Sequence record: PQ850618.1
Origin: Escherichia phage ManiWeber_Bas99
Length of the DNA: 64,000 nt
Strand: one strand, 5' to 3'
Part shown: piece after piece, positions 5,483 to 22,058 of the stretch
Position numbering within the stretch: position 1 is the stretch's first letter
Layout of the letters: every line of letters begins with the position of its first letter
Notes under the pieces: generated by a model
Told to the model about the DNA's origin: nothing
What the model saw: the letters and a program-made list of their open reading frames with translations, nothing else
Database searches by the model: none
Position numbers and translations under genes: made by a program

Positions 5483-6403
5483 ATGACGATACCAATCAAC
5501 ACATTCCCTCTATCTGGACAAACTCCAGTCTTGCCTGCGGTGTATGCTAATGGCTTGGCGATTGTCTCAGAATTCACTTCTGATAAAAACTTGATTGTTC
5601 CACTGAGCCCGCCGCTTGCATCGGGGTACAACTCAGTAGGTCAATTCTTTATGATTGGCAATGATGGCGATTCGACCAGCAAGCCTAATCTGACATTGTC
5701 TGTACCTAAGATGAACATCACCGACGTTCAAACTGGCTTGACTGCATCAACAATCACCATTGCTTTTGGAGAAGCAGTGATTATAGGAATGGAGTCTGGA
5801 GGGTCCAAGAATGCTGTCGCCGTTAAGGTAGTCAAATCCAGCGACAACCAATACACTTTACCAGCTGCGACGGCTTCCGTTCTCGGCGGCGTCAAAATAG
5901 GAAGCGGAATAAGCGTCGCAGGTGACGGTACAATTAGCGTCACTCAATACTCATTGCCGATTGCGTCAGCATCTACTTTAGGCGGCGTAAAGGTCGGTAC
6001 AACTCTATCAATTGATGGTTCCGGTGTGCTTAACGCAGCGGCAAGCACCGTCCAGAATGCCACGAACAGTGTTAGCAATCCTCCAACCACTTTGGTTAAT
6101 CTGGCAACATTAAACCTTCCTGCAGGCAAGTGGCTGGTCACGGCAAGCCAATTGACCGTTGCAACAGCAGGCGTTCAAGCGAATACCGGAATTACAGTCA
6201 AATTGTCAACAAGCAATTCAGATATTACGGATGATGCATTTACCATGTCAGCTGGCATTCGGGCTGCAGGTCGTTTCGGCGGCAACATCCCAACAAAAGT
6301 AATTACTCTTGCCGCGCCTGGTAATGTGTATTTAAACTATCAGTGCACCGACGCGTTGACATCTACCGTTTACGGACAGATCACCGCAATTAAGCTGAAC
6401 TAA
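5483..6403 (+). CDS. virion protein with tandem LGGVK(I/V)G repeats (fiber-like)
   Basis: ATG at 5483 with GAGGT SD; two repeats ASVLGGVKIGSGISVAGDGTISV and ASTLGGVKVGTTLSIDGSGVLNA; Gly/Thr/Ser-rich. Confidence 0.45.
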   Translation: MTIPINTFPLSGQTPVLPAVYANGLAIVSEFTSDKNLIVPLSPPLASGYNSVGQFFMIGNDGDSTSKPNLTLSVPKMNITDVQTGLTASTITIAFGEAVIIGMESGGSKNAVAVKVVKSSDNQYTLPAATASVLGGVKIGSGISVAGDGTISVTQYSLPIASASTLGGVKVGTTLSIDGSGVLNAAASTVQNATNSVSNPPTTLVNLATLNLPAGKWLVTASQLTVATAGVQANTGITVKLSTSNSDITDDAFTMSAGIRAAGRFGGNIPTKVITLAAPGNVYLNYQCTDALTSTVYGQITAIKLN

Positions 6404-6589
6404 AGAGGAAGTTATGCAAAAGATTATTCAGTCACGTTATGTTAAAGTGCGAAATATTAATTGCAACTCTTTGCTTTCTTGGAAATGGGCTGTTTATGAC
6501 TCGATGTTGATTGGCGTTTTAGTGGCAGGAGTGCTATTTAATATTCACTGAATTCATCGGCAAAGGATTGCCGAGAGTTTTATACGTAT

Positions 6590-9019: not shown

Positions 9020-10159
9020 ATGACTCGCATTAGCCAAACACACTCTCGCCTCCCAGCGAGCAAGGTGCGCCCTTTTGATATGCAATCCGTGACCGACGCG
9101 GCTGTTTCCCAGCTTGCGCGTATCGGTATTGTGTTTGATTCCGCGATTGTGCGTGATCAGATTGAGCACTTAAACCGTGCAGGCGCTTTCCGCGTAGGTG
9201 ACGCCGCATTTACTGCGCCGCAGACCACGCCATCAATCCCGACCCCGCTGCAGTTCCTGCAACAGTGGCTGCCTGGCTTCGTCAAAATCATGACCGCTGC
9301 CCGTAAAATTGACGAGCTGGTTGGTATTGACACCGTTGGTCAGTGGGAAGATGCAGAAATCGTTCAGGGCATCGTTGAACCAGCTGGCACCGCAGTTGAA
9401 TATGGTGATTTCACCTCTATTCCTCTGGCAAGCTGGAACGTGAACTTTGAACGCCGTTCCATCGTTCGCGGTGAAATGGGCATGGCAGTCGGCATGCTGG
9501 AAGAAGGCCGCGCGTCTGCGATGCGTCTGAACTCTGCAGAGACCAAGCGCCAGCAGGCTGCTGTATCTCTGGAAATCATGCGTAACGCAATCGGCTTCTA
9601 TGGTTGGTATAACGGGAACAACCGCACGTTCGGCTTCCTGAATGATCCAAACCTGCCAGCGGCAATGACTTCAAACACCACTTCCGGCTGGGCTACTGCG
9701 ACCTTCCAACAGGTGACTGCAGACATCCGTTTGATGGTTCGTCAAATCCGTGTCAACTCTCAGGATCAGATTGATCCAGAGAAGGTTGATATGACTCTGG
9801 CGCTGCCGACCAACTCTATTGATTGGCTGTCAAACACCACCGACTTCGGTATTTCTGTACGTGACTGGATCACCCAGACTTATCCGAAGATGAAGATCAA
9901 ATCCGCACCGGAACTCAACGGCGCACTTGGCAGTGACCCGACTTTCCTGAATGTGGCATATCTGTACGCTGATCACATCGATTCCTCAATTGATGGCTCA
10001 AGCGATGATGGTTCCGTATTCAGTCAGCTGGTCCAGACTAAGTTTATGACTCTGGGCGTTGAGAAACGCGCTAAGAGCTACGTTGAAGACTACGCAAACG
10101 CAACAGCAGGCGTTCTGCTCAAGCGTCCTTTCGCAGTCGTCCGTATGACTGGTATCTAA
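9020..10159 (+). CDS. major capsid protein
   Basis: 379 aa; ATG at 9020 with AGGTGA SD; position after scaffold; followed by a stable hairpin as commonly seen after capsid genes. Confidence 0.55.
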
Positions 10160-11592: not shown

Positions 11593-11599
11593 GGTGTAT

Positions 11600-12175
11600 A
11601 TGACAGATGTCGACCTGATTGACATGCTGGCAACGCGAATTGAAGAAGGTCTGGCGACGTATAGTCGTGCAGACCTTTCTGCTGTTCCAGTCCAGAAAAA
11701 ATACCAACCGACTCAACAGGGCATTCCGACTGGTGATCAGATTTGGTTTAACCTTTTATTCTCAGTCCCATTCGGTTGGTCAATGAGAAAGAATGAATTT
11801 GTCAATGATGAATCTCAATTTGTTAATGGCAAATTTAAAGATATTGAAGATCAGATATACGCAACACGTTTTCAAATTAGCGGCTTATTTCCAGAAGTTC
11901 CTGGCAATCCAGAAAAGCCTACGGCTAATGACGTTTTGACTTATTTAGCAAGATTCATAACCCACAAGGCTAATTTGAGGGATTGGTTTAAAAGGCATCA
12001 AGCTTCAGTATATAGAGTCGACATGAACAACAATGAAAAGTTCTATGACGACATGTCTCAGTTTGAATCGTTTCCTTCTTTTGATTTGGTGATCCTTCAC
12101 AGAAACGCAATTTCAATTGACACGCCTGCTGTTGCAAGAGCTGTTAATAACGATTTGGGCGATATTCCGGTGTGA
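11600..12175 (+). CDS. hypothetical structural protein
   Basis: ATG at 11600 preceded by GAGG; 191 aa. Confidence 0.5.
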   Translation: MTDVDLIDMLATRIEEGLATYSRADLSAVPVQKKYQPTQQGIPTGDQIWFNLLFSVPFGWSMRKNEFVNDESQFVNGKFKDIEDQIYATRFQISGLFPEVPGNPEKPTANDVLTYLARFITHKANLRDWFKRHQASVYRVDMNNNEKFYDDMSQFESFPSFDLVILHRNAISIDTPAVARAVNNDLGDIPV

Positions 12176-12176
12176 T

Positions 12177-12662
12177 ATGACAAAATCAAAAATGATAGAG
12201 AAACAGATAAAGGCGCTTCAATCAATGAAGGGTCTTACTGTTGAGGCAGGATGGTTTGACTCTACCAGATACCCTTCAGAAACTGGTGGAGAAGGTATTC
12301 TGGTGTCAGAAGTTGCGCGGCTTAATGAATTTGGTCACATAGCCGTTTTGAACTTTGGACAAGGACCAGTCAGGGTAGAAGTGCCACCCAGACCATTCAT
12401 GAGATACGCCTATGAATTATTCGTTAGTGAGCGCAGTGAAATAGAGAATAAAATTGCTAAAAAAATTTTTTCCGGTAAAATAGACGCTAGACAGGCATTG
12501 GGTCAAATTGGGCTTGCGATGGAAGCAAAGATTGTCGAATCAATTAAAAACGGACCGTGGCAGCCAAACGCCAGATATACTGTACGTGTGAAGGGATTCG
12601 ACAAACCTTTGATTCACACCAGCCTCATGTGGCAATCTGTCAGCAGCCAAGTCATTAAATAA
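12177..12662 (+). CDS. hypothetical head-tail joining / tail completion protein
   Basis: ATG at 12177 directly after the upstream stop; 161 aa. Confidence 0.45.
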   Translation: MTKSKMIEKQIKALQSMKGLTVEAGWFDSTRYPSETGGEGILVSEVARLNEFGHIAVLNFGQGPVRVEVPPRPFMRYAYELFVSERSEIENKIAKKIFSGKIDARQALGQIGLAMEAKIVESIKNGPWQPNARYTVRVKGFDKPLIHTSLMWQSVSSQVIK

Positions 12663-12674
12663 GAGGACACCGAC

Positions 12675-14213
12675 GTGATCAGTCAATCTCGTTATATTAA
12701 AATTGTATCAGGGGTCGGAGCAGGCGCGGCTGTTGCAGTTCGCAAACTGTCGCTTCGCGTCATGACTTCTAATACAGTTCTGCCGCCGGGCATTGTAGCA
12801 GAATTTTCAACGGCTGATGCTGTTGGATCATATTTCGGTTATTCTTCCGAAGAATATAAGCGCGCAGCATTATATTTTGGATTCATCAGCAAGCAAATCA
12901 ACTCGCCTGATTCAATCAGCTTCTCGCGTATTGTTTCAACTGCGATTCCAGCAATGGTCATCGGTGATACTGAGCCTAAAGTGCTTGCTACGTTTCAAGC
13001 ATTCACTGGCGCTATTTTAAGCATCACTTATGATGGCACAGACTACCTGACTGACGCAATTAACCTTTCAGCGGCAACAAGTCTGGCGAATGTGGCTGAA
13101 CTTCTGGAAACGGCAATCAATACTAAATTTGCAGCAGAAGGTGGCACGTCGGTGCCTGCACTTGCTGATGCAGAAGTGTATTGGAACGCTAATACTCAGC
13201 AGTTCACGCTGGAAGCAGCGCCGTCGACCGCTGGCGCAGGCAACCTGTCTATCAACGTCACAGGCCAACCGACCGACCCGTCTCAAGCATTGGGTTGGAC
13301 CACCACTGGCACCGTAACCGTTGCAGGCCAGGGCGTTTCAAGTCCGGTAGAAGCAATCGCAGCATCTGTGGAAATCTCCAACAACTTCGGCTCATTCCTT
13401 TTTGCTGGGGCTGACCGAACTCTGGAAGAAATTACCGCTGTGGCAGCGTGGAATCATTCGCAGAATAATATGTACATGTATTTATTCTCGACTTCGTTCG
13501 CTAATATCGGGTCATACTACACCGCTCTGAAAGGGTACTCAGGCGTTGGCATGATGATTCGCGCCACTAACCTTGCAAACGATTACATCGACCAAGCGCC
13601 TGCTGAAATCCTCGCGGCGACGAACTATAATACTGTGAATGCGACTCAAAACTACATGTATTATCAGTTTGATACTCGCAACGTGACTGTTTCAACTGAC
13701 TCTCGCGCAGATACTGCTGATCAAAACCGTGCTAACTACATCGGTGCAACTCAGCAGGCCGGACAAACCTTGGCATTCTTCCAGCGCGGCGTATTGATGG
13801 GCGGGTCTACCGCAGCAGTTGACATGAATACTTATGCCAACGAGATGTGGCTTAAATCTGCTATCACTTCTCAGCTGTTCAGCATGTTCTTGAATCTTGG
13901 TCGCGTGCCTGCAAACGAAGAAGGTAAAGCTACTGTACAAGCCATGATTCAAGTTGCTGTTGACAATGCGAAGGTTAACGGCACCATCTCTGTTGGCAAG
14001 GCGCTGACTGAGATTCAGAAACAATACATCACGCAAACTTCCGGTGACAACACTGCTTGGCGGCAGGTTGAAACTATCGGTTACTGGCTGACTGTAGATT
14101 TTGATACTGAAACCACTTCCGATGGGCGCACCGAATACTATGCAACATACACGCTAATCTACTCTAAAGATGATGCTGTGCGTCGCGTTGAAGGTCGTGA
14201 CGTCCTTATCTAA
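12675..14213 (+). CDS. major tail protein, sheath-like
   Basis: 512 aa; GTG start with AAGAGGA SD; placed before tube-like genes and the tape measure; sheath assignment inferred from size and synteny only. Confidence 0.4.
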   Translation: MISQSRYIKIVSGVGAGAAVAVRKLSLRVMTSNTVLPPGIVAEFSTADAVGSYFGYSSEEYKRAALYFGFISKQINSPDSISFSRIVSTAIPAMVIGDTEPKVLATFQAFTGAILSITYDGTDYLTDAINLSAATSLANVAELLETAINTKFAAEGGTSVPALADAEVYWNANTQQFTLEAAPSTAGAGNLSINVTGQPTDPSQALGWTTTGTVTVAGQGVSSPVEAIAASVEISNNFGSFLFAGADRTLEEITAVAAWNHSQNNMYMYLFSTSFANIGSYYTALKGYSGVGMMIRATNLANDYIDQAPAEILAATNYNTVNATQNYMYYQFDTRNVTVSTDSRADTADQNRANYIGATQQAGQTLAFFQRGVLMGGSTAAVDMNTYANEMWLKSAITSQLFSMFLNLGRVPANEEGKATVQAMIQVAVDNAKVNGTISVGKALTEIQKQYITQTSGDNTAWRQVETIGYWLTVDFDTETTSDGRTEYYATYTLIYSKDDAVRRVEGRDVLI

Positions 14214-14260
14214 ATAATTGCCGCCGTAACTGGCGGCCATCTCTCTGAGAGGAATCTGTA

Positions 14261-14728
14261 ATGATTAACGTTTCCGGTTTTGGCGCTTCGATTCGTTTAG
14301 TGGCATCAAACACTTTTCCAAATGGTGTAACTCTTTCTGATTTCGCAGATGATGCTGATCCGATTGACGCGCCTGATCTTCAAATCTCTGAAGCGGCAAT
14401 GGGATTGAACGGTGACTTGGTAGTCTGGAACCGTGCCAACCCTCTTGAAGTAGGCGTCAACATCATCCCTACTTCTGAAAGCGATGTAAACTTAGATGTT
14501 CTGGCAGCGGCTAACCGTGTAGGCAAGCGCAAGAACTCTGCGAAAGACGTGATCACCCTTATTCTGACCTACCCTTCTGGCATGGTCATCACACTGAATA
14601 AGGGAACTTTGACGACTGGTTCAGTGATTCCTGGCATCCAGTCTCAGGGTCGTGTAAAAACACGTCAATATCGCTTTAAGTTTGAGAACGTAGTCAAAAC
14701 TGGCGTGAGCAACCAAGAGATTTTATAA
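14261..14728 (+). CDS. tail tube-like protein (paralog 1)
   Basis: 155 aa; N-terminus MINVSGFGASIRLVA... parallels the 15679 gene; position after the sheath-like gene. Confidence 0.45.
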   Translation: MINVSGFGASIRLVASNTFPNGVTLSDFADDADPIDAPDLQISEAAMGLNGDLVVWNRANPLEVGVNIIPTSESDVNLDVLAAANRVGKRKNSAKDVITLILTYPSGMVITLNKGTLTTGSVIPGIQSQGRVKTRQYRFKFENVVKTGVSNQEIL

Positions 14729-15057
14729 TGTATCAAATACCACTTGACAGCGTACCTAACCAGAATATCAGCTTTAACGTTGACGGTGCTTATTGGCAGC
14801 TGCACATATTCGCCGCAATTGAGCACATGTGCGCAGATGTTTACCGCAATGGCGAATTGTTGATTCAGGGGGTACGTTGTTTTGGTGGTATACCAATGGT
14901 GCCTTATAAATATCTCATGATTGGGTACGGCAACTTTATTTTTGACAGCGTACCCGATTATGAGCATTTTAACTCTGGCGGCTGTAATTTATATTACATG
15001 TCAGAATCTGAGTTGGCTGAATTCCAGAAAACTGCTGAAGCGGAGTTTGCAATTTGA
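14728..15057 (+). CDS. hypothetical tail protein
   Basis: ATG overlapping the upstream stop (TAATG). Confidence 0.45.
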   Translation: MYQIPLDSVPNQNISFNVDGAYWQLHIFAAIEHMCADVYRNGELLIQGVRCFGGIPMVPYKYLMIGYGNFIFDSVPDYEHFNSGGCNLYYMSESELAEFQKTAEAEFAI

Positions 15058-15410
15058 CAACTCTAACGATTGAAGTTAATGATAACAATGACCTGTTTCT
15101 GCCTGATGGAAGAAATTTGAATATTCTGTCAGGAGAAAAGGCCATGGTACAAGTTATCAAGGCGGCGCATCAAATGCGACTTGGTGAAGACTTGTACGAT
15201 GTTGAAAACGGAGTCGATTATTTAGGCACTGTTTTCAAATCGCCCGTTGATGAAGACGGTGCGAGAAAGTCGATTGCAGATGCTATTCTGAAGAAAGCAG
15301 ACGTTGCCGGAATCGACTCATTGACTGTCACCATCCAAAACGGTATTCTTGGATTCACCGCTGAAGTGGTGACTATTTATGGCGAACGTATAAAGGTGAG
15401 TAATCAATAA
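15054..15410 (+). CDS. hypothetical tail protein
   Basis: TTG start overlapping the upstream stop; 118 aa. Confidence 0.4.
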   Translation: MTTLTIEVNDNNDLFLPDGRNLNILSGEKAMVQVIKAAHQMRLGEDLYDVENGVDYLGTVFKSPVDEDGARKSIADAILKKADVAGIDSLTVTIQNGILGFTAEVVTIYGERIKVSNQ

Positions 15411-15676
15411 TGGCACAAGTAATTCATTTTGCTAATGGCGTCATGAAATTTGGCGAAAAATTTGAAGACGCATCGGAATTATTCAAAAAGACTTCAAACC
15501 CTGTTGCGGAGAAGAAAGAACAGGTTGAAGAGAAGGCAGTAGAATCGAAAGTTGATTTCGATTCAATGAGCGTCTCTGAATTGAAGGCTTATGCAAAGGA
15601 ACATGAGATTGACATCAAGGGTCTTTCTTATAAGGATGAAATTCTTGCTGCAGTTAAATCTGCATCTGCGGAGTAA
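15410..15676 (+). CDS. hypothetical protein, Lys/Glu-rich
   Basis: 88 aa ORF, overlapping start/stop with neighbours. Confidence 0.4.
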   Translation: MAQVIHFANGVMKFGEKFEDASELFKKTSNPVAEKKEQVEEKAVESKVDFDSMSVSELKAYAKEHEIDIKGLSYKDEILAAVKSASAE

Positions 15677-15678
15677 AC

Positions 15679-16176
15679 ATGGTCAATATTAGTGGATTTG
15701 GCACAAGCATTAGAATTGTCGCTCTTCAATCTTTTCCTGTTGGGCTGAATATCAGTTCTTTTTCTGATGACCAGGATTCGCTAATTATTGAGGAAGTTGA
15801 ATCAGTAGGTTATCAACTTACTTACGACGGCAGCATTTGCATATACGACAAAGCCGCCGTCGTTCGCGTATCCATTGCGGTCATTCCAAACACTGAAGAT
15901 GACATAAATCTTAAGCTTTTATTATCTGCCCGTAAAGGTGGATTCAAGTGGTTGCCAATTCAGGATGTGACATCAATGCTTATTACATATCCTGACGGTG
16001 GAAGGGTGGCATTCTCTAACGGAACAATAATCAGCGGTCCGCTTGGTGACTCCATAGAGCAATCAGGCCGTCGCAAGACAAACCGATACACATTTGTGTT
16101 TGCCAGCTACGGCGGCGCGCAGAGCACGTCTCAAATTGCCAAGGGCGTGGTGCAGAGCATATTGGGGTCCATTTAA
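15679..16176 (+). CDS. tail tube-like protein (paralog 2)
   Basis: 165 aa; N-terminus MVNISGFGTSIRIVALQSFP... and C-terminal KTxRYxF match the 14261 gene. Confidence 0.45.
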   Translation: MVNISGFGTSIRIVALQSFPVGLNISSFSDDQDSLIIEEVESVGYQLTYDGSICIYDKAAVVRVSIAVIPNTEDDINLKLLLSARKGGFKWLPIQDVTSMLITYPDGGRVAFSNGTIISGPLGDSIEQSGRRKTNRYTFVFASYGGAQSTSQIAKGVVQSILGSI

Positions 16177-16709
16177 TGGCTATCGATTTACTGTCATATA
16201 GTCTATCAAACAGAAGCTTCACGATAAAGAGCTTCAACCTTGGAGAAGTATCCACGCTTGGATGGGCCATAGTCAACGTCAAAATAAGACTCCAAGCGAA
16301 GATATTCAAAAACCAAAGGGAAGACGGCAGCTATATTGTCGATGGCAGAGTAAAGATGCCGCGAATACTCACTGTCACCGTGATAGCGCAAACGAAAAGT
16401 GCATCAGATGCAATAGCTAAAATGCTGCAAAACAGGTCGACTATATACACAATTAATTCCCGTGGTCTAATATTCGAACGTATGGTGCTGCAAAATAACA
16501 ACTTCAGCCAGGACGCTGACAATATAACGTCTCAGCCCATACAATTGGTCTTCCATGAGATATTAACACAGCAGGATGTGTCTATTCAAACAGCGCAGGC
16601 AGGCGACTCAACAGTAATAGAGCGCGGCATTGCATACATAAAAGAAACTTCTGCCAGCGTCACTGGCGTCGCTACAAAGGTGATGAATGGTATCAAGGGG
16701 ATGTTCTGA
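16176..16709 (+). CDS. hypothetical tail protein
   Basis: 177 aa ORF. Confidence 0.45.
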   Translation: MAIDLLSYSLSNRSFTIKSFNLGEVSTLGWAIVNVKIRLQAKIFKNQREDGSYIVDGRVKMPRILTVTVIAQTKSASDAIAKMLQNRSTIYTINSRGLIFERMVLQNNNFSQDADNITSQPIQLVFHEILTQQDVSIQTAQAGDSTVIERGIAYIKETSASVTGVATKVMNGIKGMF

Positions 16710-17269
16710 TGGACTTCGTTTCGATTCTGCTTTCTGGTCAATCTTTGACCATAACGAATGAGTCAACAGGTCTTCCTGTCTGGACAAGGCTTTCACCTGT
16801 TTCTGCAGAAATAACATCCCCAGCAGAAACAACTCAATTCCCTCTTGCTGGTACAGCCATGCAGGTTGTCGAAGTATCAAGCACGTCATCAGTAAGCAAT
16901 TTACAGGCGGCAAAGGTTGTAATGCCAGCCCATATGGCGTTAAACGTAATTTGCAATGACCAGTCTACAATTGAAAATATCATAAATTCATTTGATGATG
17001 ACGAAGTCACATTTTCAATAACTTCACGAAGCATCATTGCCAGTAAAATGTCGATGTCCGACGTTGAAATAACCCAGTCAGAAGAAAACTTGAATGGAGT
17101 CTCAATAGTAATAACCTTCGAGCAAACGTCATTTAGCATTCAAGGAAGCTTCGACCCTAAACAATCTGCAGACGAATCATCAAATGGTGTTGCTATTAAA
17201 GAACCAGTCAGTTTGACTACAACTGTGAGTTCGTTATATAATAAAATAAAATCAACAGTAGGAATATAA
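16709..17269 (+). CDS. hypothetical tail protein
   Basis: 186 aa, Ser/Thr-rich; start overlaps the upstream stop (TGATG). Confidence 0.45.
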   Translation: MDFVSILLSGQSLTITNESTGLPVWTRLSPVSAEITSPAETTQFPLAGTAMQVVEVSSTSSVSNLQAAKVVMPAHMALNVICNDQSTIENIINSFDDDEVTFSITSRSIIASKMSMSDVEITQSEENLNGVSIVITFEQTSFSIQGSFDPKQSADESSNGVAIKEPVSLTTTVSSLYNKIKSTVGI

Positions 17270-17270
17270 A

Positions 17271-17687
17271 ATGAAGATCACCAACAAACAAACTGGTCGT
17301 ACAGTAGAAATTAAAATCAGCAAAATGACTGCGATGGAAGGCTGGAATATTCAGCGTCGCTTTGTCGAATTTGCAATGTCGAAAGACCCTGCTTTTCGTT
17401 CAGAGTATACGATGGAAGTGTTGAGCTTCGCAAAAGTCGAGCTTGATGTGGGCCAAGAAATCCCATTAAGTACTGGTGCACTAATTGACAACCATCTTGG
17501 TGACTGGGAAAACCTTAAAGAAGTCTTCGAAGCAGTCCTCATGGAGAACGGTATAAACCCAGATACTCACGCCGAGCGTGAAGGCTACTGGGAACAAGCT
17601 GGCGGCGAAATGGCTGCAGCATTCATCGGCGAATCGATGCGATTAATCGCGCCATTCCTCAGCGGCGAGACTCCAAACAAGGGGTAA
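17271..17687 (+). CDS. tail assembly chaperone candidate
   Basis: 138 aa acidic protein directly upstream of the tape measure gene; positional inference. Confidence 0.4.
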   Translation: MKITNKQTGRTVEIKISKMTAMEGWNIQRRFVEFAMSKDPAFRSEYTMEVLSFAKVELDVGQEIPLSTGALIDNHLGDWENLKEVFEAVLMENGINPDTHAEREGYWEQAGGEMAAAFIGESMRLIAPFLSGETPNKG

Positions 17688-17690
17688 ACT

Positions 17691-19871
17691 GTGTCTGACT
17701 CATTAGAAAAATTTGTGCTTCAATATACGGTGGACTTGAAAGAGTCCATCAATCGTCTTGAGCAATTGCAAGATAAAGTTGATCAGACAAACAAAAAGGC
17801 GAAATCCGCTGGCAAAGATTTCTCTGGAGCATTCAAAGATGTTTTTGGCGAGCTAAAGCCGCTTACTGGTGAGCTAGGGTCAATTGACGGAATACTTGCG
17901 CGGCTGACATATCGTTTTGCCGCGCTCGTTCCTGTTGTCGCAGGATTGGCAGTCGTCGTCAAATCCATCGTTGATGTTCGAAAAGAATACGAAGCGCAAA
18001 GAAAGCTTGGTTTTGAAGCCGGACTCTCTCCAATGGGTGTCGAACAACTACAACGACAGTTGAATGAAAGTTCAGGTGGCATCCTTGGCGCACAGGGGTC
18101 GCGAGACTTAATCAGCAAAGCTTCTAATCTGGCATTCAATGCATACACCAACCCCGATGTGATGAACAAGGACAACTTGTTGTTGAACAAGATGGGGACA
18201 AGTCCTTTCAACAGTAACGGCGGCATCAAAGACACGAATCAGCTGCTTGATGAAATTGGAACAAAGCTGAGAAGTGTTAATGAGCAAACCGCTCGTGCCA
18301 TTGGTGCTCTGGCAGGTTTTACCGCCGATGAAGTCCGCGCCCTTCGCGAGCGCAACCAGTCTGTGAAAGAAAGCACACGCATAAGCGATGAGGAAACGGC
18401 AAAGCTGCAGCGCCAACAAGCTGCTCTTGAGACTATACGAAATAGTATGGGGCAAATTCAAGAAGATTGGCGACGTATTGAATTGGTCATCGGTGAAAAC
18501 GTTATGCCTGCATTCTCGACGCTTGTCAGCAAAACCGCCGATACAGTCGAAGGATTCCAGATGATGTTCCAAAGAATGTCTGACGGATGGAGCGAATTTG
18601 TCGACAATTTCATTGCTGACTTGAAACACCCGTTTGATAAACAGGCGGCTGTTAACGAGCGTCACGAGCGTGCCGTTGATAGATGGATCACGCAGATGGC
18701 CGAAGGCGATGTGAAACGCCAGAGGAACCAGGAGCAAAACGCAGCTGAACAACGTTCTGCGCAAGCACTTTTCACTCGCGATATAAACCTGTTTTCAAGC
18801 GCCGTTTCAACATTTGCTGGCGTCATTGATGAGCGACAAGCATGGGCTGCATGGGCTGGTGAAATAGGACGAAGCGCAGGTCAATCTGCCATGCCTGGAA
18901 CACCAGCACTAAGTACTGGCGCGACCGTAGGCAACAACTTGGGATCAGGCAATCCGACCGCTTACGACTCAATCTATGAGGAAGCATCCAAGCGTTATGG
19001 AATCCCTGTTGCGATGATGAAGGCCGTAACAGAAGTCGAATCTGGATTCAACCCCAATGCCGTAAGCGGAGCAGGTGCGACCGGACTGATGCAAATCATG
19101 CCTTCCAACTTCAAGGGTCTTGGTATCACAGACGGCAACGACCCTAGACAAAACATTATGGGCGGCGCTCAACTGTTGAAAGAGTATTTAAACGCTGCCA
19201 ACGGCGATTGGAATCTTGCGCTGACGATGTATCACGGTGGCTACGACCGCAGCGGCTGGGGCAAGAATACACGCGCTTATCCTGGAAAGGTCATGGCCGC
19301 TCTCGACCGACAATCCAATGGTGAGTATGCCACGGCAGCGCCGCAAGGTGCACCAGTTACTCCAGTGCTTAGCGGTAGCGGAGCGGAAGCACCAAAGGGC
19401 AGCTATGCACCAGTACAAGGCCAATCGCGCCAAACGGTGCAATACAGGCAATTGCAAGAAGCCATTGCAGGATACCTGAACGTACCAGTTGAGCAGTTGA
19501 TGCAGGGACAAGTCAACAAAGGCGATATTGACTTTGCTCAAACTTACCTTAAGCTTGGAACGCAAAGGGATTATATTAAAAACATGCAACTGGCTTCAAC
19601 TCCAGGTGTAAGACCGAACATTCAAGCCGAAGCGATGAAAAACGCTCGTCTTGCTGCATTCCAACTTGAAGCATTCCAGAAATACGGCGGCGACCTTTCC
19701 GCGAATAGTCGACCTGGTGGGCGTGATATTACTATGGGTCAGAAAAACGTTGTCATCAACGTCAACGGCGCTCAAGACCCACGCAGCACGGCATTCGAAA
19801 CGAAACGAGTGCTTGAACAAGATGATATCAACGACATAAACAACCTTACTGCTACACCTTTGAAGTGGTGA
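17691..19871 (+). CDS. tape measure protein with lytic transglycosylase (SLT) domain
   Basis: 726 aa; coiled-coil N-terminus with a hydrophobic segment; C-terminal EVESGFNPNAVSGAGATGLMQIMP matches the SLT catalytic-Glu motif. Confidence 0.65.
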   Translation: MSDSLEKFVLQYTVDLKESINRLEQLQDKVDQTNKKAKSAGKDFSGAFKDVFGELKPLTGELGSIDGILARLTYRFAALVPVVAGLAVVVKSIVDVRKEYEAQRKLGFEAGLSPMGVEQLQRQLNESSGGILGAQGSRDLISKASNLAFNAYTNPDVMNKDNLLLNKMGTSPFNSNGGIKDTNQLLDEIGTKLRSVNEQTARAIGALAGFTADEVRALRERNQSVKESTRISDEETAKLQRQQAALETIRNSMGQIQEDWRRIELVIGENVMPAFSTLVSKTADTVEGFQMMFQRMSDGWSEFVDNFIADLKHPFDKQAAVNERHERAVDRWITQMAEGDVKRQRNQEQNAAEQRSAQALFTRDINLFSSAVSTFAGVIDERQAWAAWAGEIGRSAGQSAMPGTPALSTGATVGNNLGSGNPTAYDSIYEEASKRYGIPVAMMKAVTEVESGFNPNAVSGAGATGLMQIMPSNFKGLGITDGNDPRQNIMGGAQLLKEYLNAANGDWNLALTMYHGGYDRSGWGKNTRAYPGKVMAALDRQSNGEYATAAPQGAPVTPVLSGSGAEAPKGSYAPVQGQSRQTVQYRQLQEAIAGYLNVPVEQLMQGQVNKGDIDFAQTYLKLGTQRDYIKNMQLASTPGVRPNIQAEAMKNARLAAFQLEAFQKYGGDLSANSRPGGRDITMGQKNVVINVNGAQDPRSTAFETKRVLEQDDINDINNLTATPLKW

Positions 19872-19875
19872 TAAT

Positions 19876-20748
19876 TTGAAAAAGAGAATCCTTAAAGTCA
19901 CCTTATCTATGCCGGATGGCACAAGCCAAGTGCTTGATGAAGGATTGATGCTTAGATGCCGAATCAAAAAGGCAGCACTTTCCGTGCAAAATAAGGCCAC
20001 AATCGAAGTCGCAGGATTGACAGGGTACTTGAGAGAGTACCTGCTTTCCAACTTCACCGCATTCAACAAACGTCTGCGTGATCAAGGCCAATTGGCGGCG
20101 AATTACGTCAACGTAACAATTGAAGCTGGATATAGAGAAGGCAACGTTGTTAGCAGCAACTTGGTATACAAGGGACAGGTGACGACTGTCGAGATAACAG
20201 CGCCGCCGCCGAACATCGTCATACGCATCACTTGCTACACCAACCAGATAAACAGGACTAAGTTTATCACTCAAGCTGCACCGTCAAACCCAACCTTCAA
20301 AGAGTTTGTGGAGTGGTCAGCAAAGCAAATGGATATTGATACTGTTATATGCGATACGTCGATTAACAATCAGCGCCTTGTTAACCCAGGCCGCACAACA
20401 TATGTTGCAGCAGCCTTGCTGCTTGAGATTCAGAACTATCAAAGGAACTCTATTGCGGCATATATCGATGATGATACGCTCATCGTCAAGGATAAAGACA
20501 AAATTCTGAATCCAGAACAGATAACGGTGATTGAGGAATTTGTCGGAATACCGATGTGGAACGAGTGGGGCGCTGACTTCACTTGCATGTATAACGCGGA
20601 TTTGAAGCTTGCCCAAGGTGTGAAATTCAAATCAGTCTTAAACCCAAGCTTGAACGACACCACATTCGTCATCATGCAACTTGAATATGATTTAGCAAGT
20701 CGTGATGACATATTTACGGTGACGGGCGGCGTTGCACCATCGGCCTAA
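19876..20748 (+). CDS. hypothetical tail/baseplate protein
   Basis: 290 aa after the tape measure; TTG start in track, alternative ATG at 19909. Confidence 0.45.
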   Translation: MKKRILKVTLSMPDGTSQVLDEGLMLRCRIKKAALSVQNKATIEVAGLTGYLREYLLSNFTAFNKRLRDQGQLAANYVNVTIEAGYREGNVVSSNLVYKGQVTTVEITAPPPNIVIRITCYTNQINRTKFITQAAPSNPTFKEFVEWSAKQMDIDTVICDTSINNQRLVNPGRTTYVAAALLLEIQNYQRNSIAAYIDDDTLIVKDKDKILNPEQITVIEEFVGIPMWNEWGADFTCMYNADLKLAQGVKFKSVLNPSLNDTTFVIMQLEYDLASRDDIFTVTGGVAPSA

Positions 20749-21329: not shown

Positions 21330-22058
21330 ATGATGGCAGAAAAGTTAACCCAACTTACAAGCCCCAACCAAACTGACAAATCAAGTATGTTTGCCGCGCT
21401 GCAGGGAATGCTGGACCGTGGCAAGTATACCACTGACGGCATGATTCCTGCACAAGTAATATCTTATGACCGCAAACAGAATTTAGCAGTCATAAAGCCT
21501 GTTATTCATTTCGTAAGTCTTGATGATAGACCAGTGGAGCGTCAACCACTGGTGTCAATTCCTGTATTGGCAATCGGCGGCGGCGGCTTCGTAATCAACT
21601 TTCCTCTGAAAGAGGGTGATTTGGGCTGGATATTCGCTGGCGACCGCGAGTTGTCGACATTCCTTGAAGAATTGAAGCCGACCGCGCCTACCAATGGCCG
21701 CGCGAAAACTTTCGCTGATGGACTGTTCATACCGGATGTATTTAGAAAATACACCATAAGCGGAGAGGATGCAGGCTCAATGGTAATCCAGTCACTCAGC
21801 GGCGCTGTCCGCATTGCATTAAGTGATGACTCGATAAACATAACTGCATCGGCTGGAGTAAATGTGAAAACACCAATAACCACTATCGACCAACAATTGA
21901 TAGTTAATGGAAAGGCAACGTTCAATGGTGGTATAGAAGGGAAAGAAGGAACGACGGCAACGCTTCCGACTGGCACAACAATCGGCGGCACAAATGTATC
22001 CACTCACGGTCACATAGGTAACGGACCTGGAAACAGAACTGGGGATATGATAGAATGA
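21330..22058 (+). CDS. baseplate hub/spike-like protein
   Basis: ATG at 21330 after AAGGAG; Gly-rich C-terminus; placed before the baseplate J-like gene. Confidence 0.4.
   Translation: MMAEKLTQLTSPNQTDKSSMFAALQGMLDRGKYTTDGMIPAQVISYDRKQNLAVIKPVIHFVSLDDRPVERQPLVSIPVLAIGGGGFVINFPLKEGDLGWIFAGDRELSTFLEELKPTAPTNGRAKTFADGLFIPDVFRKYTISGEDAGSMVIQSLSGAVRIALSDDSINITASAGVNVKTPITTIDQQLIVNGKATFNGGIEGKEGTTATLPTGTTIGGTNVSTHGHIGNGPGNRTGDMIE

Follow-up and report, generated by a model that had tools for sequence, protein, structure and literature searches.

The region studied here carries two genes for tube-like tail proteins with three small genes between them, which raises the question of which copy builds the tail tube and what role falls to the other. 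A sequence-only reading of the window (the whole 64,000-nt stretch of Escherichia phage ManiWeber_Bas99, PQ850618.1) had proposed that the two genes are paralogs, one encoding the tube and the other a tube initiator, a terminator or a baseplate-tube adaptor. Both ORFs were found where that reading had placed them, on the + strand and with ATG starts (14261..14728, 155 aa, hereafter A; 15679..16176, 165 aa, hereafter B), and so were the three genes that separate them (14728..15057, 15054..15410 and 15410..15676). They are part of a late operon on the + strand that runs from the capsid genes through the neck, sheath, tube and baseplate genes to the fibres (Table 1). The 8 kb of the tail region (12000..20000) shared 97.3% DNA identity with Escherichia phage HansTraber_Bas100 and 94–95% with WFC, WFH and other Wifcevirus members; judged by its sequence, the window is assigned to Wifcevirus, as an E. 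coli myophage distantly related to the Pseudomonas Pbunavirus phages.

Table 1. Features of the late region with their most probable assignments and the matches on which these are based
Feature	Coordinates	Strand	Basis
Major head protein	9020..10159	+	
E217 gp29 counterpart (terminator-like neck ring)	11594..12175		BLASTP to E217 proteins
E217 gp30 counterpart (second neck ring)	12177..12662		BLASTP to E217 proteins
Tail sheath, ortholog of E217 gp31	12675..14213	+	PF11863 (DUF3383) E = 2.3e-120; phrog_205 'tail sheath'
Tail tube (paralog A), ortholog of E217 gp32 / Pa193 gp33	14261..14728	+	PF22764, PDB matches, gene position
Baseplate adaptor, 'helical bundle' or plug, ortholog of E217 gp33 / Pa193 gp34	14728..15057	+	PF22479 (Pam3_gp18) E = 4.8e-16
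Sheath initiator, ortholog of E217 gp34 / Pa193 gp35, TTG start	15054..15410	+	9b45_G 'gp35 Sheath initiator' E = 4.6e-23
88-aa protein with SAP/HeH-like C-terminal motif, slot of E217 gp35	15410..15676	+	phrog_10541 (unknown function)
Baseplate tube / tail tube-B (paralog B), ortholog of E217 gp36 / Pa193 gp37	15679..16176	+	PF22764, PDB matches, synteny
Ripcord-1, ortholog of E217 gp37 / Pa193 gp38	16176..16709	+	9b45_S 'gp38 Ripcord-1' E = 1.1e-20; 8eon_A E = 2.9e-20
Ripcord-2, ortholog of E217 gp38 / Pa193 gp39	16709..17269	+	PF22760 (Gp38_E217) E = 1.8e-71; 9b45_V 'gp39 Ripcord-2' E = 1.3e-27
Ortholog of E217 gp39	17271..17687	+	52% identity to E217 gp39; phrog_4627 (unknown function)
Tape measure with lytic transglycosylase domain, ortholog of E217 gp40	17691..19871	+	PF01464 (SLT) E = 2.8e-24
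Tail hub, ortholog of E217 gp41 (predicted trimer under the ripcord ring)	19909..20748	+	48% identity, E = 1e-92
Tail tip or spike, ortholog of E217 gp43	21333..22058	+	44% identity, E = 2.5e-67; annotated 'baseplate spike'

The proposed paralogy was borne out by pairwise alignment, in which the similarity of A and B was far above chance: BLASTP aligned them with 48/143 identities (34%), 62% positives and no gaps (E = 1e-33), and the Smith-Waterman score was 259, as compared with 30.8 ± 4.8 for 1000 shuffles (maximum 53; z = 47). The termini of the two proteins are alike, as had been noted, but the resemblance is not confined to them and spans the whole tube core (residues 1–143). The N-terminal motif said to be shared over 30 residues is real, but it comprises 15 residues, 11 of them identical, and the identity over the first 30 residues is 17/30. 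The C-terminal block is likewise present in both proteins, at residue 133, reading KTRQYRF in A and KTNRYTF in B; its consensus is, however, K-T-x-x-Y-x-F, and the arginine of the K-T-x-R-Y-x-F given earlier occurs in B only. Over the aligned codons, A and B had only 44.5% nucleotide identity, and the duplication is therefore old and not a recent repeat. The same follows from the presence of both copies in nearly all of ~380 related genomes, as a tblastn search with B gave 741 matching places spread over 381 phage records, nearly all of them with two; the phages concerned infect Escherichia, Serratia, Burkholderia, Pseudomonas and others. A recent tandem-like duplication or an assembly artefact was rejected on the grounds of this low nucleotide identity and the conservation of both copies across genera.

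Both proteins fall into PF22764 (E217_Gp32), which was the sole family returned by a Pfam scan at E ≤ 1, with 202.5 bits for A (profile positions 1–143 of 144) and 183.6 bits for B (positions 2–143 of 144), at a gathering score of 27 bits; both also match phrog_2420. The two copies were told apart by comparison with the solved tails of E217 and Pa193 (the gene numbering of the latter is shifted by one relative to E217). A matched the tail tubes best, i.e., Pa193 gp33 (9b42_M; E = 1.9e-48, 167 bits, residues 1–150) and E217 gp32 (8fuv_T; E = 5.8e-42), vs. E = 3.4e-25 (92 bits) for the baseplate tube of Pa193 (gp37, 9b45_M) and E = 4.8e-25 for that of E217 (gp36, 8env_I). For B the order was reversed, with the highest scores for Pa193 gp37 (9b45_M; E = 1.1e-52, 181 bits, residues 1–162) and E217 gp36 (8env_I, carrying the labels 'Ripcord gp36' and 'Baseplate component gp36'; E = 2.1e-49), vs. 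E = 1.3e-22 (84 bits) for the tail tube of Pa193 (gp33, 9b42_M) and E = 1.8e-16 for that of E217 (gp32, 8fuv_T). The nomenclature is inconsistent here, PDB 8env labelling E217 gp36 'Ripcord' while it is 'tail tube-B' in PMC10329688. In terms of identity, A was 53% identical to E217 gp32 vs. 38% to gp36, and B about 51–52% to gp36 vs. 33% to gp32, the whole matrix giving 53% and 52% within the ortholog pairs and 32–39% across pairs. From these reciprocal identities it follows that the duplication predates the split between Wifcevirus and Pbunavirus. As each paralog best matches its own solved counterpart over the full length, the assignment of tube vs. baseplate tube is considered settled, and we give the reading of A as the tail tube and B as the baseplate tube (tail tube-B) a probability of about 0.93. 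Thus, the part of the sequence-only reading that took one copy for the tube and the other for a baseplate-tube adaptor or initiator is supported by the solved-structure matches of both proteins. Given full-length identities of 51–53% to solved structures, we infer a tube-type beta-sandwich fold for A and B; AlphaFold2, run on two-sequence alignments (each paralog with the other), returned models too poor to inform on the fold (mean pLDDT 33.0 and 31.3).

Gene A directly follows the sheath gene, with its start codon 47 nt past the sheath stop, and is preceded by the Shine-Dalgarno sequence GAGAGGA, while B lies immediately upstream of the ripcord-1/ripcord-2 pair, as in E217. Beyond the tube core, B carries a C-terminal extension (residues 144–165), in which residues 144–162 (SYGGAQSTSQIAKGVVQSIL) align with residues 146–164 of Pa193 gp37 (SYLGAQTARQAISNVIQSVL); A ends ~10 residues earlier than B and has no equivalent of this extension.

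The surrounding genes were compared with E217 gp24–gp44 by all-against-all BLASTP of 21 window proteins, and 20 of these had their positional counterpart as best match, in the same order; the sole exception was the 88-aa ORF, which occupies the slot of the 143-aa, low-complexity gp35. The order common to both phages is sheath, tube, adaptor, sheath initiator, small ORF, tube-B, ripcord pair, gp39, tape measure, hub, gp42, tip and wedge. The sheath protein is 54% identical to E217 gp31 over its full length, the adaptor (43% identity to E217 gp33) matched 9b45_A, the 'gp34 helical bundle', with E = 7.1e-26 and 8env_G with E = 1.4e-25, and the sheath initiator (45% identity to E217 gp34) matched 8env_H with E = 1.3e-21 and phrog_120, 'baseplate wedge subunit', with E = 7e-21. 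Ripcord-1 had Pfam matches to PF22760 and Dit_like, and the two ripcords constitute a second paralog pair of the module. The tape measure, 29% identical to E217 gp40, matched phrog_2013 ('lytic tail protein') with E = 4.8e-139, and the counterpart of the hub in HansTraber_Bas100 is annotated 'baseplate hub'. An ortholog of E217 gp42 lies between hub and tip, and the wedge gene comes after the tip. The product of the gp39-like gene had no Pfam match and, by its position only, is a putative tape-measure chaperone; a frameshifted extension of the kind known from G/GT-type chaperones was also searched for, and no + strand ORF of at least 40 aa overlaps the 3' end of this gene.

Alternatively, A and B might both supply the bulk of the tube, either together, in a heteromeric or alternating tube, or as two alternative tube proteins. 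They do belong to one Pfam family, both genes have ribosome-binding sites, and Pakpunavirus P7-1 has three coaxial tube-like proteins, namely tube, tube-B and tube-C (PMC12697256). In E217 and Pa193, however, the gp32/gp33 ortholog alone polymerises into the tube and the B ortholog contributes just one ring, while B bears the conserved C-terminal extension that is peculiar to baseplate tubes, so we regard a shared bulk role as very unlikely. The codon usage of B is also less like that of highly expressed structural genes: a crude index of codon usage, with the capsid and sheath genes as reference, was 0.66 for A and 0.47 for B, which weakly suggests a high-copy A and a low-copy B.

B could instead close the tube at its head-proximal end, as a terminator or tail completion protein; a terminator was one of the options listed in the earlier reading. 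A fold related to that of tube proteins is known from the terminators of some tailed phages. Still, the best matches of B are baseplate components in the E217 and Pa193 reconstructions, and by gene order B belongs with the ripcord, hub and tape measure instead of the neck. In E217, two neck rings lie at the head-proximal end of the tail, the terminator-like gp29, which is seated on the tube and recruits the sheath, and gp30 as the second (PMC10329688). The window encodes the orthologs of both as separate upstream genes (11594..12175 and 12177..12662), and no match between B and E217 gp29 or gp30 was found by BLASTP. The terminator option is consequently dropped for the second copy, being even less probable than a shared bulk role. 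That B is a decaying or functionless duplicate has nothing in its favour beyond the duplication itself and is next to negligible, given that its ORF is intact, its product is 98.8% identical in the other Wifcevirus genomes listed and ~51% identical to the Pbunavirus orthologs, a second copy is present in nearly all of ~380 genomes, and its ortholog is a resolved virion component.

For the assignment of A as tail tube and B as baseplate tube, the structures of the Pseudomonas relatives supply a detailed template. The E217 tube consists of 34 stacked gp32 hexamers, i.e., 204 copies (PMC10329688; Li et al., Nat Commun 2023). Its 'tail tube-B', gp36, superimposes on gp32 with an RMSD of 3.6 Å and forms one hexameric ring concentric with gp32, to which three gp37/gp38 heterodimers of the baseplate cap attach; these take the 6-fold symmetry to the 3-fold symmetry of hub gp41 and tip gp43, and after contraction gp36, gp37/gp38 and gp41 remain at the tube tip as a 'cap' (PMC10329688). 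The arrangement in Pa193 is the same, and its sheath initiator binds the baseplate tube and ripcord-1 by their C-termini, which extend outward (PMC11456595). The contacts described around the adaptor differ, as the C-termini of gp37/gp38 are bound by gp33 in E217 (PMC10329688) and, in the numbering of Pa193 that is shifted by one, those of gp37/gp38 by gp35 in Pa193 (PMC11456595).

Paralogy, orthology, synteny and the conserved extension are direct results for the window, while the oligomeric states, virion positions, copy numbers and contacts proposed below are transferred from E217 and Pa193 at 51–53% identity. A would polymerise as stacked hexamers around the tape measure and inside the sheath, and the number of rings is probably somewhat smaller than the 34 of E217, because the tape measure is shorter (726 vs. 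858 aa). B would form a single hexameric ring (six copies per virion), coaxial with the tube, as the first tube-like layer of the baseplate 'cap'. As known for E217 and Pa193, this ring is expected to follow the last tube ring and precede the ripcord ring, with its distal face on a pseudo-hexamer of three ripcord-1/ripcord-2 heterodimers, which in turn would lower the symmetry from 6-fold to that of the 3-fold hub and tip. Its proximal face would offer the tube-like surface on which polymerisation of A starts and, as a template for A, B would therefore act as a tube initiator or adaptor. By analogy with Pa193, the C-terminal extension of B may project outward to the sheath initiator, encoded two genes upstream, and help to position it; this contact is the least secure step of the model.

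The closest known systems agree with this scheme in most respects. E217 (Pbunavirus; PDB 8fuv, 8env, 8eon) also has two PF22764 paralogs, gp32 and gp36, which are 51–53% identical to their orthologs in the window. Unlike E217, the phage of the window infects E. coli and belongs to Wifcevirus. Moreover, the small ORFs before tube-B are unrelated (88 aa with a SAP/HeH-like motif vs. the low-complexity gp35 of 143 aa), the tape measures differ in length, as given above, and the tube-B of E217 has a 2-residue insertion after about residue 93 relative to B. Pa193 (PDB 9b42, 9b45; PMC11456595), whose gp33 and gp37 are the best-scoring solved homologs of A and B, with an alignment to gp37 that covers the extension, differs from the window in the same ways. 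Further afield, the tube initiator gp17 of cyanophage Pam3 combines a tube-like beta-barrel with an outward C-terminal domain, a design as in B, but it is a single initiator sitting directly on the hub, whereas in the window, as in E217, a ripcord heterohexamer would be interposed between tube-B and hub (PMC9942802). The same tube-fold paralog design is seen in tube-B gp78 and tube-C gp79 of Pakpunavirus P7-1 (PMC12697256). In such initiators, a single hexameric ring (or a few) of a tube-fold paralog on the hub templates the tube, while the C-terminal part reaches baseplate components (PMC9942802, PMC12697256). In the Pfam search at E ≤ 1, which gave PF22764 only, neither A nor B was a member of the initiator families of Pam3, P7-1 or T4. 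The T4 tube initiators gp48/gp54 are of the same design.

The tube/tube-B arrangement is already known, the E217-type family having two atomic structures, and a duplicated tube-fold gene is the standard tube-initiator or baseplate-tube solution of contractile tails, so the discovery value of the locus is small. Its practical value lies in annotation. In the deposited HansTraber_Bas100 record, the tube, tube-B and both ripcords are labelled 'tail fiber protein', following the PHROG (2420 for A and B) and Pfam names, and GenBank records of Wifcevirus and Pbunavirus call the same four proteins by this name. We rejected A and B as tail fiber proteins, since their solved homologs are a tube and a baseplate tube and the real fibre genes lie downstream (the fibre of E217 is gp46; PMC10329688); for both, 'tail fiber protein' is a wrong legacy label. 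The BASEL paper had annotated the structural genes of Wifcevirus from the Pbunavirus cryo-EM structure, given their clear homology (PMC11990801). With a wrong fiber label, efforts to engineer the host range or receptor-binding proteins of Wifcevirus and Pbunavirus phages could be misdirected. The Pseudomonas relatives of Wifcevirus rank among the most widely used phages in personalised therapy (PMC11990801).

The 88-aa protein in front of tube-B had sub-threshold Pfam matches only (DUF6887, SAP and Rho_N) and, by tblastn, was found in Wifcevirus genomes only. No match was obtained against PDB sequences, nor by BLAST against E217 gp24–gp44 (E ≤ 0.01), and homology with E217 gp35 was rejected on the latter result. 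By eye, a short N-terminal resemblance to gp35 (I-x-F/Y-A-N-G) can be seen, which we do not take as evidence. Conceivably, it is a factor specific to the genus and not part of the virion, with a role in initiating the baseplate or tube or in linking tail assembly to nucleic acid.

In a promoter and terminator scan of 12000..18000, counts were just modestly above those of shuffles, and no convincing + strand terminator was found inside the tail module. A new role for the 88-aa protein, or a regulatory RNA in the sheath–tube intergenic GC hairpin that sets expression ratios of the tail operon, appears rather doubtful. Either would leave untouched the account of the tube/tube-B pair, which is complete. 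The position of this hairpin is conserved, but its sequence is not.

The tail module holds a second paralog pair, encoded by adjoining genes whose products correspond to ripcord-1 and ripcord-2 of Pseudomonas phage E217 (listed below together with the other features considered here), which in that phage build a heterohexameric ring. Public names are misleading for this part of the module: GenBank records name the counterparts of the tube, the baseplate tube and both ripcords (window 14261-17269) 'tail fiber protein', the entries concerned in Escherichia phage HansTraber_Bas100 (PQ850605.1) being Bas100_0017 and Bas100_0021-0023, and the same label is found in PHROGs 2420 and 2580 as well as in the PF22764 description. 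For E217 itself, gp36 is 'Ripcord' in PDB 8env but tail tube-B in the paper on the phage (PMC10329688).

Features of the tail module and of the E217 counterpart region
Feature	Sequence	Position	Remarks
Ripcord-1 ortholog (E217 gp37)	window	16176-16709	matches PF22760 (Gp38_E217) and Dit_like
Ripcord-2 ortholog (E217 gp38)	window	16709-17269	matches PF22760 (Gp38_E217) and Dit_like
Tape measure protein	window	17691-19871	726 aa; internal SLT lytic transglycosylase domain
Perfect GC-rich hairpin GCCGCC-GTAACT-GGCGGC	window	14220-14237	sheath-tube intergenic spacer
Hairpin GCGGCGGA-CTCGA-TCCGCCGC	E217	about 6384-6404	sheath-tube spacer
88-aa ORF	window	15410-15676	C-terminal SAP/HeH/Rho_N-like motif

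The tape measure protein is shorter than that of E217 (858 aa), with which it shares only 29% identity. Under linear scaling of length, a proportionally shorter tail would follow, with roughly 29 tube rings vs. 34 in E217.

The hairpin between the sheath and tube genes lies 7 nt past the sheath stop codon, and no T-run is present at it on the + strand. Its position is conserved in E217 while its sequence differs, and the folding z-scores are modest (-1.9 and -2.8). The element may stabilise the mRNA or serve in its processing rather than act as a terminator. Further downstream, the sheath-initiator gene has TTG as its apparent start codon (window 15054), in a 4-nt overlap with the upstream gene that takes in that gene's stop codon; ATGA/TAATG-type overlaps occur at several gene junctions of the module, which suggests translational coupling.

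Of the 21 window genes set against E217 gp24-gp44, the 88-aa ORF alone had no detectable E217 counterpart; it fills the slot that is occupied in E217 by gp35 (143 aa, low-complexity). Its tblastn matches were confined to Wifcevirus genomes. As its product is just 86% identical to the HansTraber counterpart, whereas the flanking DNA is 97% identical, sequence comparison suggests that this slot is locally mosaic or fast-evolving.
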